A DNA stretch of 64,000 nt, from sequence record OL780484.1. One strand, 5' to 3'. Shown here in pieces: positions 55,314-64,000 of this stretch (its first letter is position 1; each line of letters starts with the position of its first letter). Source of the DNA: Escherichia phage vB_EcoM-E33. The translations under genes and the position numbers were made by a program. The notes below the pieces were generated by a model, which saw nothing but the letters and a program-made list of their open reading frames with translations, was not told where the DNA came from and did not search any database.

Positions 55314-56806
55314 AAATCCACCTGTTTCATTACGTAATTAAATTTCTCATCAGCATAACGTTGAATACGTTCTAAAGCGTGTTTGAGGGCGTAGTTCAAA
55401 TGAACATATTTCTTTTTAGCCGTAGCTGATTTAGGCTTAACACCCATGTCGTCGATGATATCCCACACCTGTGCTGTTGATTTAGAGGCATGTTTACGGA
55501 GTACACGACCAATTGTCTGGAGTACAATGATTTTAGATTTTACTGGATGGGCAAATACAACGTGGTGAAGGTTCTTAACGGAAATACCAGTAGAGAACAC
55601 ACCATAACTTGCCACAACAATAATACCCTTACCATTTTCCGCCATTACTTTCAGAGCATTACGCGTTTCGGTATTAACTTCACCTGATACGTAATAAACT
55701 TCTTTATGTTGCTCTTTAACCATTTCAAAAAGAGTTTTACCGTGTTCGATGTTTTTAAACATCAGGAATACGTTCTCTTCTTTCTTAGCGAGTTTAACAG
55801 CTAAATTAGCAACCCATTTATTACGACGAGTAGCCTTAGTAATGACCTTGATTTCTGATTGGTAATCTTTACCTTTCATTTTAACCGTGAATTCGTCTGG
55901 GTATCGAAGGAAAATACTGTTGATTTTAAGGTCAGTAACCTGTCCTTCTTCCATTAACTGGGAGGTGGATACTGGCTTAAACACATCACCAAACAAACCC
56001 ATATATTGCATTAAATTAGCTTTACCATCTTTTAAAGAACCAGACAAACCGAATTTAAACATACAGTTGGTTAGGCCTTCGATGATAGTAGAAATAGATT
56101 TACCTGTAGCCAAATGGCATTCGTCGTTCATAAACATACCGAACTGAGCAAACCATTCTTTAGGTTGCTTGATAGCGGTTTGATAAGTTGAAACATAAAT
56201 CATTGCATCGGAATCACGAGCAGTACCTGAACGAATACCAAGCATTGCGGCTTTAGGGAACAGACGATAATCGATGAAGTCGTTAATCATCTGGTCGACA
56301 AGTGCAGTAGTAGGAACTAAGATGAGGATTTTACCTTCATAGTTCTCAACGTAATATCGACTCAGGAGCGCCTGGATTAATGATTTACCTGCGGATGTAG
56401 GTAAATTCAGAATTGCACGACGTTTTGTCAGGCCGTTGTATACGGCTTCATTCTGATACCAATGAGGCTCAATCTTGGTAGACCCTGAATAAATTTCTTG
56501 AGAAGCTACCCATGAATCAAAATCTTCACGAGAAATATCTTCCTGTTCAAGAATACGTGGGTCAATCCACAGAGAGTATTCAAATTGTTCAGCGAACTTT
56601 TTAATTTGAGGGACCAATCCATAAGGAAGTTTACGGTTGTAATCCAGAAGGCGAATACGTCCGTCCCATTGGCCATAACGAAATTTAGGGTTGAATTTAT
56701 ATCCATCAGCTTCAAAGCTAAAATAGTCTCTGAGTTCGTAGAATGTAGATTCATCGCATTCAATACGGACATGACTAAAATTATCAAAATGTACTTGAAT
56801 TTGCAT
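55310..56806 (-). CDS. uvsW: UvsW SF2 DNA helicase
   Basis: 498 aa; Walker A-like LNLPTSAGKS; helicase motifs; synteny. Confidence 0.85.
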   Translation of the reverse strand: MQIQVHFDNFSHVRIECDESTFYELRDYFSFEADGYKFNPKFRYGQWDGRIRLLDYNRKLPYGLVPQIKKFAEQFEYSLWIDPRILEQEDISREDFDSWVASQEIYSGSTKIEPHWYQNEAVYNGLTKRRAILNLPTSAGKSLIQALLSRYYVENYEGKILILVPTTALVDQMINDFIDYRLFPKAAMLGIRSGTARDSDAMIYVSTYQTAIKQPKEWFAQFGMFMNDECHLATGKSISTIIEGLTNCMFKFGLSGSLKDGKANLMQYMGLFGDVFKPVSTSQLMEEGQVTDLKINSIFLRYPDEFTVKMKGKDYQSEIKVITKATRRNKWVANLAVKLAKKEENVFLMFKNIEHGKTLFEMVKEQHKEVYYVSGEVNTETRNALKVMAENGKGIIVVASYGVFSTGISVKNLHHVVFAHPVKSKIIVLQTIGRVLRKHASKSTAQVWDIIDDMGVKPKSATAKKKYVHLNYALKHALERIQRYADEKFNYVMKQVDL

Positions 56807-56819
56807 AAGTAATTCTCAG

Positions 56820-56827
56820 TTATAAAT
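56820..56827 (+). promoter_or_regulatory. late promoter TATAAATA for inh-hoc
   Basis: exact motif about 34 nt upstream of the inh ATG. Confidence 0.55.
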
Positions 56828-56833
56828 ATAGTT

Positions 56834-56841
56834 ATATTTAT
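56834..56841 (-). promoter_or_regulatory. late promoter TATAAATA (minus strand) for uvsW, divergent from the inh promoter
   Basis: plus-strand TATTTATA about 27 nt upstream of the uvsW ATG. Confidence 0.5.
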
Positions 56842-56861
56842 ACACCAACAAGAGACTAATT

Positions 56862-57533
56862 ATGGATACTCAATATATTGAAGAGCTTCGTGCACTCGAA
56901 GATAAAAAAGAAGCTAAAGCTAAGTTAATCGAATACGGCGAACAGTTTGGTTTAAAACTTAAGAAAACCCGTTCGTTTGATAATTTGATTATCGATATCT
57001 CTGAAGGCCTTAAAGCCTTGGCTGACGAACCACTTCCGGAAACCGAAGGGTTGTCCATTTCTGATTTGATTGATGCTGCTGATGAACTCACTGGTGATAA
57101 AGATTTTATCGAAGGTGTAGAACCAGCTAAAGAAGAAGCAACCCTGTTGTTCGATGCCCCTGAGGCTGCAGTAGAAGTCGTTGAGGTAGCCGAACTTCCT
57201 AAGGTAGAGATTATCGAAGAGGATGTTCCATTTGACGAAGAGAAATTCAAAGGGGCTATAGCCAAGGTTGTTGAATCTGAAAAACCTGTATTCTCTTTAC
57301 CTGAAAACTTCAGTCCTAATCTTTTGCTTATCGGTAAGAACCCAGGTTATTGCACCGTTCCTTGGTGGATTTACCAATGGATTTCTGAGACTCCGGATTG
57401 GAAAGAACGTCCAACTGCTTTCCAACATCCTTCTGCCCACCAAACATTATTTAGTCTGATTTATTACATTAATCGTAATGGTTCAGTATTAGTACGTGAA
57501 ACTCGTAACTCATCTTTTGTCACTTTAAAATAA
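56862..57533 (+). CDS. inh: Inh-like protein (inhibitor of prohead protease), by position and size
   Basis: 223 aa; synteny uvsW-inh-hoc. Confidence 0.5.
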   Translation: MDTQYIEELRALEDKKEAKAKLIEYGEQFGLKLKKTRSFDNLIIDISEGLKALADEPLPETEGLSISDLIDAADELTGDKDFIEGVEPAKEEATLLFDAPEAAVEVVEVAELPKVEIIEEDVPFDEEKFKGAIAKVVESEKPVFSLPENFSPNLLLIGKNPGYCTVPWWIYQWISETPDWKERPTAFQHPSAHQTLFSLIYYINRNGSVLVRETRNSSFVTLK

Positions 57534-59834: not shown

Positions 59835-59860
59835 GGGACCTTACGGTCCCTTTTATTTTT
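59835..59860. terminator. bidirectional terminator between convergent rnlB and gene 24 copy A (gggacc-UUAC-ggtccc, T-runs on both sides)
   Basis: hairpin with flanking T/A runs. Confidence 0.55.
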
Positions 59861-61133
59861 CTAAAGGCGGTAATTTTACGCCGAGATAAGAACTCAATTG
59901 ACTTTGATTAGCCATTTTGTCCATATCAGAACCATCAATAATGCGGGCTTCTTTATCGTCCTTAGCGACGGTATAAGGGTTTGCAGTCAATGCATAACGA
60001 GCAAGCAATGCTACTGTAGGTTGTAAGCTTTCCGGGTCAACAATAACCTTAAATTCACCAACTGAAGTATCACCTTCTTCGTCAACCACATTCAAACCTT
60101 CCGTATAAGGCGCATAATATAAAGATGCGACCGTCTGTCCTTCACCCATCTGGGCATTTACACCAACAATAACATAATCACATGGACTATTCATATCAGC
60201 ATAAAGTGGTAGGCCATTCTTTAATATACCATAAGCCAATTCGTCCTGGTCTTCCTTTTTCTCAACCCAACCAGAGGCGGCGAGAATAGCAGCACAACGA
60301 GAACTAGCTACTGCATAAGTCCCGGCAAAAGAAGTCTGTCGTTGGACGGCAGAGTTCATCTCACACATATAATAATATAATGTGCGAGCACGGTCCTGGG
60401 CATTATCGTAGCGAGGGTTGGTAAGGTCTAATACACCCTTTTCAGAAACACCCCGGACTTTAAAACGAGAGCTCACGGTAATTAATGACTGTAATACATC
60501 CTTATTAATTTCTTCTGCCATTTGAATGCCTAGCAGATTTTCAACGAAATTAGGAGCATTAAACCCGTTAGATTCTAGGTCTTGGGCTAATTCGACTGTC
60601 AATGAAGTTTTCAGTTTACGTGATTTAACTTCAGATTGCCATTTGTCGATACGGAATCCGGTTTCAGCAATTTCAGGATGGCCTTGTTCAAATTTAGAAG
60701 TAATAGCAGCATCCGACACCATACGGATATGGCCGGCTGCCACTGCTTCAGAAATAACTTCGCTGAGGTTGGTTTCTGTGGTTCCGGCGAAAGGAGATGC
60801 TTCTAGAACTTTAAACACTACGCTTTCAAACTGGAACATATCACCGACCGCATAAGCTGTAGATGAATCAGTAAATTCTGGAATATTTTCACGTTCCGTC
60901 ATACCAATCTGGCCCGCAAATGTTGCTCCACCAAGATAAGTCATTTTGTCGTCAGGATTCAGTACACGTACCCCATACAGAGCAGCAACCGGTTGATTTG
61001 TTTTTTGTTCAGCAACTAGGGCTTTAAAGATTCGTTTATTAGTTGCTTGGGTGTATGAAAGAAGAGCAGGACGGCCAACCGAGCTGGCAGCCGTCAATGT
61101 GGATTCTTTAATTAGGTCTACAATCTTAGACAT
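59853..61133 (-). CDS. gp24-like head vertex protein, paralog A (426 aa)
   Basis: about 55-60 percent identical by eye to the adjacent gp24; shared blocks RKLKT-LTVELAQD-ESNGF-AP-F, EINKDVLQSLITVS, ANPYTVAKDDKEAR. Confidence 0.75.
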   Translation of the reverse strand: MSKIVDLIKESTLTAASSVGRPALLSYTQATNKRIFKALVAEQKTNQPVAALYGVRVLNPDDKMTYLGGATFAGQIGMTERENIPEFTDSSTAYAVGDMFQFESVVFKVLEASPFAGTTETNLSEVISEAVAAGHIRMVSDAAITSKFEQGHPEIAETGFRIDKWQSEVKSRKLKTSLTVELAQDLESNGFNAPNFVENLLGIQMAEEINKDVLQSLITVSSRFKVRGVSEKGVLDLTNPRYDNAQDRARTLYYYMCEMNSAVQRQTSFAGTYAVASSRCAAILAASGWVEKKEDQDELAYGILKNGLPLYADMNSPCDYVIVGVNAQMGEGQTVASLYYAPYTEGLNVVDEEGDTSVGEFKVIVDPESLQPTVALLARYALTANPYTVAKDDKEARIIDGSDMDKMANQSQLSSYLGVKLPPLEK

Positions 61134-62416
61134 TAATCAGCCTCGTAAATAATTGCCGGAAGTTTAACGCCAACCAGATAAGACATATTGCTCTGTCCAG
61201 CCATTAAATCCATATTGGTTGCATCGATAACACGAGCTTCTTTATCGTCTTTAGCCACGGTGTACGGGTTAGCTGATAGTGCATAACGAACCATCAGAGA
61301 AATAGAAGGTTGTAATGAATCCGGGTCAACAATAACCTTATAAGCACCGACGTGTTCTTGGTCATCTAAATCTAAGCCTTCGGTATAGGGAGCGTAGAAA
61401 ATAGAACCGACAACTTCATTACCGCCGTAATTCTCTTTAACACCAACGGTAACATAATCTAATGGACTGTTAACGTCACAAAACAGAGGCAGACCATTCA
61501 ACAAATATCCGTATGCAGTTTCCGGAAGCCAATTATTATCTTCGGGTTTATGTTTTAACCAGCCAGAACCTGCAAGCATTGCAGCCACACGACTTGAAGC
61601 CACAACAAACGTGCCAGAATAAGAAGTAGTTTTCTGGATTTCAGAATTCATCTCACAAACGAGTTCATAAAGTTTACGTGCAGATTCAGGAGCACTGTCA
61701 TAAGACAAATCGATGATGCCGTTATCAGATACACCAGTAACTTTATAACGTTTGGATACGGTTATTAGAGATTGCAGAACGTCTTTATTAATTTCATCTG
61801 CCATTACTGTAGCCAAGAGGTCTTCTAAGAACGCCGGCGCGTCAAAGCCATTTGATTCCATATCCTGCGCTAATTCTACAGTCAAAGCCGTCTTCAATTT
61901 ACGGGTCTTAACCGGAGCATTCCATTTATTAACCTGGAATACAGCATCAGAGATTTCTACATCACTCGCTTCAAATTTAGTGGTATGGGCAGCATCAGGA
62001 ACCAGACGACATGTTAATGACACTAAACCTTCTTGAAGAGCATCAGCCAATTCTGTGGCGCTAGTGGACGCGAGTGGGCTTGCTTTAAGAGCCTTATAAA
62101 CCACATTCTGGTACTTGAAATATTCACCCTGAGCAATCGCCTGGGCCTTATCTGTGAGTTCTGGGATAGTTTCACGGTCTTTAGAACCAACTTCACCACC
62201 ATAAGAGGCACCTGTCTGGAAACTAAATTCATTATCAGGGGTAAGATATTTGACACCATACAGTGCAGCAATAGGCTGGCTAGTACGTTGTTCGGCGATA
62301 ATATCACGGTAAATCAATTTGGTTGTAGCACGGGTCAAAGCAACAAGATTAGGGCGACCCAATGAGTTGCTGGAAGTAGTTGTTGACTCGCGCAGTAATT
62401 CGTTAATCTTTGCCAT
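61133..62416 (-). CDS. 24: gp24 head vertex protein (427 aa), closest to T4 gp24
   Basis: N-terminus MAKINELLRESTTT-SNS-GRPNLVALTRATTKLIY and long collinear similarity to remembered T4 gp24. Confidence 0.9.
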   Translation of the reverse strand: MAKINELLRESTTTSSNSLGRPNLVALTRATTKLIYRDIIAEQRTSQPIAALYGVKYLTPDNEFSFQTGASYGGEVGSKDRETIPELTDKAQAIAQGEYFKYQNVVYKALKASPLASTSATELADALQEGLVSLTCRLVPDAAHTTKFEASDVEISDAVFQVNKWNAPVKTRKLKTALTVELAQDMESNGFDAPAFLEDLLATVMADEINKDVLQSLITVSKRYKVTGVSDNGIIDLSYDSAPESARKLYELVCEMNSEIQKTTSYSGTFVVASSRVAAMLAGSGWLKHKPEDNNWLPETAYGYLLNGLPLFCDVNSPLDYVTVGVKENYGGNEVVGSIFYAPYTEGLDLDDQEHVGAYKVIVDPDSLQPSISLMVRYALSANPYTVAKDDKEARVIDATNMDLMAGQSNMSYLVGVKLPAIIYEAD

Positions 62417-62444
62417 TGCGCTTTCCTTATTGAGGGTATATGTT

Positions 62445-62452
62445 TATTTATA
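62445..62452 (-). promoter_or_regulatory. late promoter TATAAATA for gene 24
   Basis: plus-strand TATTTATA about 28 nt upstream of the gp24 ATG. Confidence 0.55.
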
Positions 62453-62488: not shown

Positions 62489-62517
62489 AGACATATCAAA
62501 ACATGAGGAGATTAAAA

Positions 62518-62784
62518 ATGAACAAGTTAAACTTTATTCGTACTACTCTTTCCGCTCTTGATAAAGACATCAAAGCTCTGGTAGAAAAATTCGGTAACAA
62601 TCCTAATGGTAATGCAGTGAATGCCTTAGTTAAGAAATACGAAGCCATGGCTTATGCTACCGACTTCTGGTGGAACGGTGAATACTCTACCCATACCAAA
62701 GACAAATCTGGTAACTGGCTGAAAATCCAAGAAAATCGTATTGACTTCCGTGATATCATCAACCGCCGAGTTAAGATTGCATAA
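62518..62784 (+). CDS. hypothetical protein, 88 aa, between genes 24 and 23 where T4 has segD
   Basis: ATG after GAGGAGATTAAAA. Confidence 0.5.
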   Translation: MNKLNFIRTTLSALDKDIKALVEKFGNNPNGNAVNALVKKYEAMAYATDFWWNGEYSTHTKDKSGNWLKIQENRIDFRDIINRRVKIA

Positions 62785-62799
62785 TACAGAAACAAGAAT

Positions 62800-62817
62800 G
62801 GGAGACCGAAGTCTCCC
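62800..62817 (-). terminator. terminator hairpin downstream of gene 23 on the minus strand (gggagac-UUCG-gtctccc)
   Basis: hairpin 17 nt after the gp23 stop, followed on the minus strand by a U-rich tract. Confidence 0.5.
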
Positions 62818-62833
62818 ATAATAAGGTTATATC

Positions 62834-64000
62834 TTAGATACCTTTAACATATACGCGACGGAAGTAACCATTCAGACCAAGGCTGTTAACGATGTCAGGC
62901 ATACCATTCTGGATACGTTTGGTAGGAGCCTGAGCAGCAGGGTCAGCGAACGGGTTGATACCGATACCGTAACGAGTTTTGAAGCCCATTACCGGTTGGA
63001 AGTTCTTCGGATCGGAACCACGCAGCGGGGTCAGTGCAACGTACGGAGCATAGTAGATACCTGCGTCCATTTCGTTAGCGCCTTTATAACCGATGGTGAA
63101 GTAATCGGAACGTGCATACTGGTCGATGTAAACGCGATATTTACCACCAAGAACACCGGCAAATACTGCTTTGGTTGTGTCAACGTTGAAACCTTGACCC
63201 AGACCTTGAGCTGCATAACTTACAGAAGTATCAACTGCAGCCAGTACGTTAACTACGTTACGGGAAGCGATGATGAAGTTACCAGCACCACGACCGGTCT
63301 GACGAGCGATTTCGGCTGCTTCTTTATCAATCTGGAACAGAAGGGCTTTAAAGCTCTCACCGGCCCAACGAGCACCACGGATATCAATCGGGTCCTGGAA
63401 GTCAAACACACCAGCTTTAGCGCCAACGGTGTTGGTCATACCAGATTTACCAACCTGTGCAGAGTAGTTAATCCAATCGATAACTTCACGGTTGATTTCG
63501 AGCATAATTTCGGTAGCAAGGATACCGGACAGTTCAGCATCTGCATCCATACCGTGTACTGCACGAAGGTCCTGTGCCAGTTCGATAGAGTAGCTTGCTT
63601 TCAGCTGACGGGATTTAGCTTCGATAACTTGTTTGTCGATGCGGAAGCCCATTTCGTTCCACGGGTTATCGGTAGAACCGTTAAAGCCTTCCTGAAGTTC
63701 GGCGATAGAAGTAGCCATACCTTCAGCCAATTCAGCCAACTTACCAGCTTCAATCAAAGCGGTAACAGCAGCATCCAGTTTAGCGGCATCAGTAGCAGCA
63801 GCATCAACGGTTACGGCTTCAACAGCCTGGAAGTGTGCAGCACCGGTAGCTTCGAAGAAGTGAGAATAAATTTTACCAACTTCCAGAACTTTGCTTGCCG
63901 CCAGTGCTTCGAAAGTTTCAGCAGCACCCTGACCAGAGAACATAGCGTCTGGAGAATACATCGGATGGAAAGCTTCTTTAGCGCCAGAAGCGATAGGGTC
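62834..64000 (-). CDS. 23: gp23 major capsid protein, C-terminal part (5-prime end of the gene lies beyond the window)
   Basis: ORF open to the window edge; codon usage of a highly expressed gene; C-terminus GYFRRVYVKGI. Confidence 0.85.
   Translation of the reverse strand, partial: DPIASGAKEAFHPMYSPDAMFSGQGAAETFEALAASKVLEVGKIYSHFFEATGAAHFQAVEAVTVDAAATDAAKLDAAVTALIEAGKLAELAEGMATSIAELQEGFNGSTDNPWNEMGFRIDKQVIEAKSRQLKASYSIELAQDLRAVHGMDADAELSGILATEIMLEINREVIDWINYSAQVGKSGMTNTVGAKAGVFDFQDPIDIRGARWAGESFKALLFQIDKEAAEIARQTGRGAGNFIIASRNVVNVLAAVDTSVSYAAQGLGQGFNVDTTKAVFAGVLGGKYRVYIDQYARSDYFTIGYKGANEMDAGIYYAPYVALTPLRGSDPKNFQPVMGFKTRYGIGINPFADPAAQAPTKRIQNGMPDIVNSLGLNGYFRRVYVKGI

Follow-up and report, generated by a model that had tools for sequence, protein, structure and literature searches.

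In a 64-kb stretch of DNA from Escherichia phage vB_EcoM-E33 (64,000 nucleotides of sequence record OL780484.1; hereafter the window), two adjacent genes on the minus strand encode proteins of the family of gp24, the capsid vertex protein of phage T4: a promoter-proximal gene (g24 copy B, 61133–62416, 427 amino acids (aa)) that is the ortholog of T4 gene 24, and a downstream gene (g24 copy A, 59853–61133, 426 aa) that is an ancient, diverged vertex-protein paralog. Our overall reading, to which we assign a probability of roughly 55%, is that the pair constitutes a late bicistronic operon for two vertex (penton) proteins, both of which would be built into the shell and would share its vertices in a non-redundant manner. 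The components of this reading differ in strength: it is highly probable that both genes encode functional, co-expressed vertex-family proteins, and likely that both products are part of the mature capsid; a position- or partner-specific, non-redundant division of labour between A and B is a tentative proposal that we place somewhat below even odds.

Copies A and B are gp24-type proteins over their full length

The first-pass annotation of the window had called the two open reading frames (ORFs; 426 and 427 aa) at exactly these coordinates and had judged them by eye to be clear paralogs of 55–60% identity, in agreement with BLASTP, which aligns the proteins over their full length with 55% identity and 77% positives (E = 7e-177). 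Both match Pfam family PF07068 (above the gathering score), phrog_138, and the gp24 entries 1YUE, 5VF3 and 7VRT of the PDB. Against PDB sequences, copy B scores 660 bits to T4 gp24 (1YUE, residues 1–424) vs. 47 bits to gp23, and copy A 505 bits to gp24 (residues 1–423) vs. 48 bits to gp23, so that for either copy full-length homology to gp24 lies clearly above that to gp23. Alignments agree, both copies being 25–26% identical to gp23, while identity to T2 gp24 (used as T4-type reference, and 94% identical to Mosigvirus gp24) amounts to 70% for copy B and 57% for copy A; the earlier impression that the promoter-proximal copy is the one closest to T4 gp24 was therefore correct. The partial ORF at 62834–63961 encodes gp23 itself, and is only 27% identical to copy B. 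Gaps relative to the solved gp24 comprise only 1–4 residues and the I-domain region (~60–160) is present in both copies, for which an HK97-like fold with an inserted I domain can be inferred from their 57–70% identity to a protein of solved structure.

Judged from their sequences, both proteins have the length (about 427 aa) and the 10-residue propeptide ending in L/I-x-E that are typical of gp24. This is unlike gp23, the propeptide of which spans 65 residues. Residues 1–10, followed by the putative cleavage site, read MAKINELLRE|S in copy B and MSKIVDLIKE|S in copy A, and the L/I-x-E|S motif at residues 8–11 is kept in 9/9 A and 9/9 B sequences from two-copy phages. The motif corresponds to the site at which the gp21 protease removes the 10 N-terminal residues of T4 gp24 (PMC9546572).

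The two genes are predicted to be read from one late transcript

An exact T4-type late promoter motif, TATAAATA, is located on the minus strand at 62445–62452, i.e., 28 nucleotides (nt) 5′ of the copy B start codon (ATG at 62416) and 3′ of the hairpin terminator that ends g23. Since this motif occurs nine times in the window vs. 6.4 times expected, which is not above chance, the promoter call rests on position and conservation: in 9/9 representative loci from two-copy phages, one TATAAATA motif is situated 26–29 nt 5′ of copy B. No TATAAAT motif was found inside copy B or copy A, either in the window or in the nine representative loci, and an internal late promoter for copy A was rejected on these grounds; copy A has no late promoter of its own and relies on that of copy B.

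Inspection of the sequence identified a Shine-Dalgarno motif for copy B (AAGGA, 62424–62428, minus strand; relatives keep aaggaaag) and one for copy A (GAGG, 61141–61144, minus strand) lying within the final codons of copy B. In the other loci examined, the latter motif is likewise GAGG (gtgag or gagtg in phages F48 and Cronus), located 6–8 nt 5′ of the start codon and within the part encoding the C-terminus of copy B. The stop codon of copy B and the start codon of copy A overlap by one base in the window (TAATG at 61131–61135, within gatTAATGtct), and they abut or overlap in all nine loci (TAATG, TAAATG, TAATATG, TGATATG, or an ATGA overlap). A terminator hairpin directly follows the copy A stop codon in 9/9 loci, the one in the window being an intrinsic terminator (GGGACC-gtaa-GGTCCC, 59835–59850) that has T-runs on both strands and separates the convergent genes g24A and rnlB. 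Because this layout of promoter, junction, Shine-Dalgarno motif and terminator is conserved, both products are predicted to arise from one late mRNA by coupled translation: the single late promoter would give one transcript for copies B and A, and copy A would be translated by coupling at the TAATG overlap, with the aid of its own GAGG ribosome-binding site. The single late promoter and the translational coupling proposed in the first-pass annotation are both borne out by these sequence signals.

Elsewhere in the window, two exact TATAAATA motifs form a compact pair of divergent late promoters (56821–56842), facing outward with 6 nt between them. The plus-strand motif (56821–56828) lies 33 nt 5′ of an inh-like ORF (ATG at 56862), and the minus-strand motif (56835–56842) lies 28 nt 5′ of uvsW (ATG at 56806).

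The B–A pair recurs as a cassette in six genera

Over the 3.3-kb locus, the window is 99.7–99.9% identical to Escherichia phages LQ5, QL01, vB_EcoM_FB, PSD2002 and Bp7, and 92.6% and 86.3% identical to JS10 and JS98, respectively, with an identical layout. Its locus identity to LQ5, QL01, Bp7, JS10 and JS98 places the window in Dhakavirus, as another Bp7/QL01-like isolate of a described species group. Copy B is 100% identical to the head vertex protein of Bp7, and copy A is 97% identical to 24b of JS10 and 90% to 24b of JS98. The duplicated vertex gene is thus already known at the annotation level, the pair having been labelled “24a/24b gp24 head vertex protein” since the JS98 record (and also in JS10 and IME08), “24(1)/24(2)” in VR7, “capsid vertex protein I/II” in VR5, VR25 and VR26, and “head vertex protein I/II” in CGG4-1. 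The JS98 genome paper of Zuber et al. (2007) reportedly mentions the g24 duplication as well. What is added here is the recognition of the pair as an ancient cassette shared across genera, with copy B, not copy A, as the counterpart of T4 gp24, with equal constraint on both copies, and with copy A apparently always found together with copy B.

The copy-number survey that the first-pass annotation had suggested was carried out by tblastn with copy A, and yielded gp24 homologs at 1534 places in 1416 phage records, i.e., about 118 records with two copies. A-type matches, defined by at least 66% identity to copy A (observed range 66–100%), were found in 116 phage records, belonging to Dhakavirus, Gaprivervirus, Gelderlandvirus (S16, STML-198, Melville), Kanagawavirus (Enterobacter and Kosakonia phages), Marfavirus (Klebsiella phages F48 and Marfa) and Roskildevirus (Erwinia phage Cronus). 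An A-type gene as the single copy was found in none of the 1416 records, and the identity-band counts of B-type and A-type matches agree. Together, the 116 A-type records, the ~118 two-place records and the matching band counts are consistent with copy A not occurring without copy B. A single gene 24 is present in one representative locus each of Jiaodavirus, Karamvirus, a Winklervirus-like Serratia phage, Moonvirus, Tequatrovirus, Mosigvirus, Yersinia phage MHG19, and Acinetobacter, Krischvirus and Aeromonas phages.

The nine representative two-copy loci, drawn from all six genera, have a common B-then-A bicistronic organisation, and the window has every element of this cassette (tandem genes, abutting or overlapping stop and start codons, one promoter, one terminator, and an ortholog from the A clade). 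The cassette would have been inherited as a unit in the Dhaka-, Gapriver-, Gelderland-, Kanagawa-, Marfa- and Roskildeviruses.

Two further observations were made during these comparisons. The gp24 encoded by GenBank record MG010123.1 (32 kb, “Staphylococcus phage SAJK-IND”) is of T4 type and shares 70% identity with copy B, as do the Tequatrovirus matches; the record is probably mislabelled or contaminated. Moreover, a collagen-repeat ORF annotated as “tail fiber protein” is located directly 5′ of the Hoc-like gene in JS10 (L003, 6585–7592), VR7 (L001, 7034–8317) and Cronus (L007, 4827–5840); the annotated hoc region of JS98 lacks it, and that of the window, which follows the JS98 layout, has no comparable ORF. 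This ORF may specify an extra head decoration, and its presence is uncorrelated with that of two vertex genes.

Copy B groups with T4 gp24, and copy A appears to be the older branch

In a neighbour-joining tree of 28 gp24 sequences rooted with gp23, the nine A sequences come together in a single clade (92% bootstrap) with an inner topology that broadly mirrors that of B, which indicates that the A/B split is ancient. The B sequences fall with gp24 of the single-copy T4, Mosigvirus, Moonvirus, Karamvirus and Winklervirus group, leaving A outside (74–87% bootstrap), and within each genus A and B are 52–57% identical. As a check independent of distance methods, derived character states were counted at conserved positions: 10 are common to B and the T4-group gp24 (with A in the outgroup state), 1 to A and B, and 3 to A and the T4 group. 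The tree grouping and these 10:1:3 counts argue that copy B is the ortholog of T4 gp24 and that the A lineage probably split off before B and the T4-type gp24 diverged from each other. The tandem duplication of gene 24 described in the first-pass annotation therefore stands as an adjacent pair of paralogs; it did not arise locally or recently in this phage, the pair being an ancient cassette in which copy B resembles T4 gp24 more closely than it does its neighbour.

From this it would follow that either the T4 group lost copy A, or copy A was captured from an unknown deep lineage. In the latter case, copy A would have come from a deeply diverged T4-like phage during co-infection, entering beside the resident gene 24 through unequal recombination, after which the cassette spread by recombination. 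We regard this origin as possible but doubtful. It would fit the finding that copy A is as close to the single-copy Jiaodavirus gp24 as copy B is (63% each) and farther from its own partner (55%), and that its position relative to the gp24 of Jiaodavirus and of Yersinia and Acinetobacter phages is settled neither by the tree nor by character counts (those for sisterhood of A and Jiaodavirus-type gp24 are 3:4:1 and 3:3:0, supporting no placement). However, with no single-copy A-type gene among the 1416 records, no donor lineage is known, and the same data would also be accounted for by an old duplication in place with later loss from some lineages. A search of ten single-copy loci for pseudogene traces of a former copy A gave nothing at E ≤ 10 and favours neither history.

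Mobility of the cassette, which capture would call for, is indicated by two sets of comparisons. Trees of gp23 and gp24 conflict: gp23 of S16 (Gelderlandvirus, two vertex genes) and gp23 of the Moonvirus Citrobacter phage CF1 (one vertex gene) are sisters with 100% bootstrap, their gp24 proteins falling in different clades. Furthermore, A of JS98 groups with A of Gaprivervirus VR7 (97% bootstrap) and B of JS98 with B of JS10 and the window (99.7%); at the nucleotide level, the window and JS98 (L002, 2220–4784) are 87% identical in copy B and 81% in copy A. This pattern points to a recombination breakpoint inside the B–A pair, between genera, and the vertex-gene cassette seems to have been exchanged independently of g23. 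Given its discordance with gp24, gp23 was not used further to stand in for the species tree, and losses therefore cannot be counted from these loci.

The spacer between g23 and g24, which as a homing-endonuclease hot spot would also suit capture, holds several other features. In the window, the hairpin GGGAGAC-ttcg-GTCTCCC with its T-run (62800–62817, minus strand) lies directly 3′ of the g23 stop codon (62834), and a listed 55-aa ORF at 62652–62819 is probably spurious. A 93-aa ORF on the plus strand (62503–62784; phrog_6003, of unknown function and without Pfam match) runs antisense between g23 and g24, and antisense ORFs of comparable size and place are annotated in JS98 (orf173, similarity to which is cited in the VR7 record), JS10, VR7 and Mosigvirus GADS24. 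The same spacer is occupied by segD in IME08, by a homing endonuclease in IME341, and by homing endonuclease genes in Serratia phage 4S and Yersinia phage MHG19, which marks it as an insertion hot spot.

Both copies are under equal, strong purifying selection

Pairwise NG86 estimates of the ratio of nonsynonymous to synonymous substitution rates (dN/dS) were low for both genes. Between the window and JS10, dN/dS was 0.044 for copy B and 0.055 for copy A (dS 0.35 and 0.24, respectively), and within Kanagawavirus it was 0.020 and 0.025 (dS about 0.25), these being the unsaturated pairs (dS 0.24–0.35). All remaining pairs gave values of 0.025–0.175, for an overall range of 0.02–0.175 in copy B and 0.025–0.095 in copy A. 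Both copies are under equal, strong purifying selection.

Decay of the second copy, or an artefact of assembly, can be excluded: the 426-codon ORF is intact, its dN/dS is 0.025–0.095, and the pair, whose expression signals are conserved, recurs in 116 phage genomes that were deposited independently and stem from many laboratories and hosts. A disabled copy or an assembly error, named beforehand as outcomes that would speak against a functional duplication, were thus not encountered. That the second copy is functional is instead strongly supported by the intact ORF, the low dN/dS, the protease site and the retention in six genera.

Copies A and B have diverged from each other to a dS above 3, with third-position identity close to background, arguing against recent or large-scale homogenising gene conversion, which was rejected. 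The sole standout run of identity is a 21-nt segment, TAAGGTTATTGTTGACCCGGA, that encodes KVIVDP and is found at approximately 60049–60069 and 61343–61363 (aligned nt 1065–1085). Around it, third-position identity is 0.60–0.65 vs. ~0.35 elsewhere, which could reflect micro gene conversion or nucleotide-level constraint.

With respect to relative rate, A and B are equally identical to gp23 and to Krischvirus gp24, and identity to the gp24 of Acinetobacter and Aeromonas phages is 4–5 points lower for A than for B, so that any acceleration of copy A would appear to be at most modest. Outgroups match the B state at 95 diagnostic positions and the A state at 41. Fixed derived residues of their own number 22 in copy A and 11 in copy B of two-copy phages; copy A carries more derived changes because the outgroups mostly have the B state. 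These counts fit adaptation of both A and B after the split.

Possible roles of the two proteins in the capsid

Given its age, the purifying selection, the protease motif and the lack of A without B, the pair very probably encodes two functional vertex proteins, whose roles may be non-redundant. Mixed vertices or a specialised role of the second copy, as put forward in the first-pass annotation, are both candidate readings. Both products would enter the prohead shell, where gp21 would trim them to gp24*-like forms, and A and B would jointly occupy the 11 non-portal fivefold vertices without being redundant, most likely as separate homopentamers that are each fitted to different local surroundings of gp23 hexamers.

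Alternatively, copy A might act outside the mature shell, e.g., as a transient prohead, nucleation or length-control factor that serves assembly only, or as a decoy for a host factor that targets vertices. Such a role would accord with copy A not being seen without copy B, B alone sufficing in most T4-like phages, and also with two segments that are far more variable among A than among B copies, i.e., the propeptide (64% vs. 93%) and the loop at T4 residues 348–359 (52% vs. 81.5%). Nevertheless, copy A aligns with gp24 from end to end with small gaps only, keeps the protease site, is constrained like B over the whole fold, and is located in a late structural operon with coupled translation, making this an improbable explanation.

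A second alternative is that A and B are interchangeable isoforms, able to occupy any vertex in mixed pentamers or random homopentamers, and kept for dosage, for robustness (pH, temperature or protease stability of the vertices), or for surface or antigenic diversity. Using T4 numbering with approximate region limits (PMC9546572), identity between A and B is lowest (36%) in the surface-exposed I domain (~82–142) and in I-domain linker 1 (60–81), and highest (67–71%) in residues 161–240 and 360–427, as would be expected of surface variants. Moreover, gp24 matters for the acid, heat and protease stability of T4 (PMC10580926), and single-copy relatives are fully viable. On the other hand, pure redundancy rarely outlasts such divergence (saturated dS, 55% identity) with a dN/dS of ~0.05 in both copies and across six genera. 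Lineage-specific fixed residues at conserved core positions of both copies also suggest differentiated constraints. Interchangeable isoforms are therefore rather unlikely, though less so than a role of copy A outside the shell.

In favour of a non-redundant sharing of vertices, the 35 fixed A/B differences among the 205 positions conserved within both groups (e.g., T4 positions 27 L/Y, 34 L/R, 57 Y/V, 204 T/I and 338 G/A) are enriched in residues 11–81, comprising the N-terminal segment and I-domain linker 1 (12/35 eligible positions vs. 23/170 elsewhere; Fisher p = 0.006), and the I-domain linkers make intra- and intercapsomer contacts (PMC9546572). This enrichment is a lead only, the regions having been picked post hoc and the domain limits being approximate. 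The sharing that we favour also has its own difficulties, and the following points weigh against it. In about 1300 of the 1416 T4-like records, a head of this type is built with one gp24, so that a second copy can be done without on the evolutionary time scale. The deep nodes of the gp24 tree are weakly supported (26–47%), and a sequence search of the PDB returned T4-type gp24 chains and no A-type chain. For the prolate head of T4, 11 symmetry-independent gp24* subunits have been modelled in the asymmetric unit, and these superimpose well (PMC9546572), which gives no obvious reason for pentons to differ from vertex to vertex. Finally, a literature search found no virion mass spectrometry or proteomics reporting both products in any two-copy phage; the proteomics paper on Morganella phage MP1 is uninformative, as its text speaks of “head vertex proteins” and its table lists only gp169. 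The function of the second vertex copy was not described in any paper found.

In a more specific version of this division of labour, which we consider unlikely, homopentamers of A and of B would occupy different symmetry classes of the prolate head, i.e., the single distal apex, the five distal shoulder vertices and the five portal-proximal shoulder vertices. Position in the capsid would then be encoded by which protein forms the penton, and the single gp24 of T4 would be a secondary simplification. We know of no tailed phage for which pentons specific to a vertex class have been described.

The T4 head serves as the reference for how large prolate capsids assemble, and all structural work on it is based on a single vertex protein. 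The second, equally constrained vertex paralog in ~8% of T4-like records (116/1416) hence offers a natural experiment on penton specification and on the limits of vertex composition. A partitioning of A and B among vertices, if real, would have consequences for how head length is determined and for capsid engineering (e.g., vertex-specific display); were the two proteins simply interchangeable, the pair would be a well-documented case of structural paralogs being kept over long periods.

Comparison with known systems

T4 gp24 (1YUE; capsids 5VF3, 7VRT and 7VS5) belongs to the same family as copies A and B and shares with this locus its length of 427 aa, its position 3′ of g23, its own late promoter and a 10-residue L-x-E propeptide. 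T4 and most of its relatives have one gene 24, to which the window adds a second, 55%-identical, translationally coupled paralog. The pairs annotated as 24a/24b in JS98, JS10 and IME08, as 24(1)/24(2) in VR7, and as I/II in VR5, VR25, VR26 and CGG4-1 are the same two genes as those of the window, with no structural difference.

A precedent for a further round of specialisation is the duplication that led from gp23 to gp24, in which a capsid gene was duplicated and one copy became specialised for a subset of capsomer positions (PMC10580926). The gp23/gp24 split separates hexamer-forming from pentamer-forming proteins and has a demonstrated function, whereas the A/B split lies within the pentamer-type protein. 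Bypass-24 mutants of T4, in which a mutant gp23 fills the vertices, indicate that T4-type heads are flexible as to what occupies their vertices and that capsid stability depends on which protein does so (PMC10580926, PMC9546572). These are laboratory point mutants that dispense with gp24, while in the A/B pair a second vertex-type protein has been added in nature and conserved.

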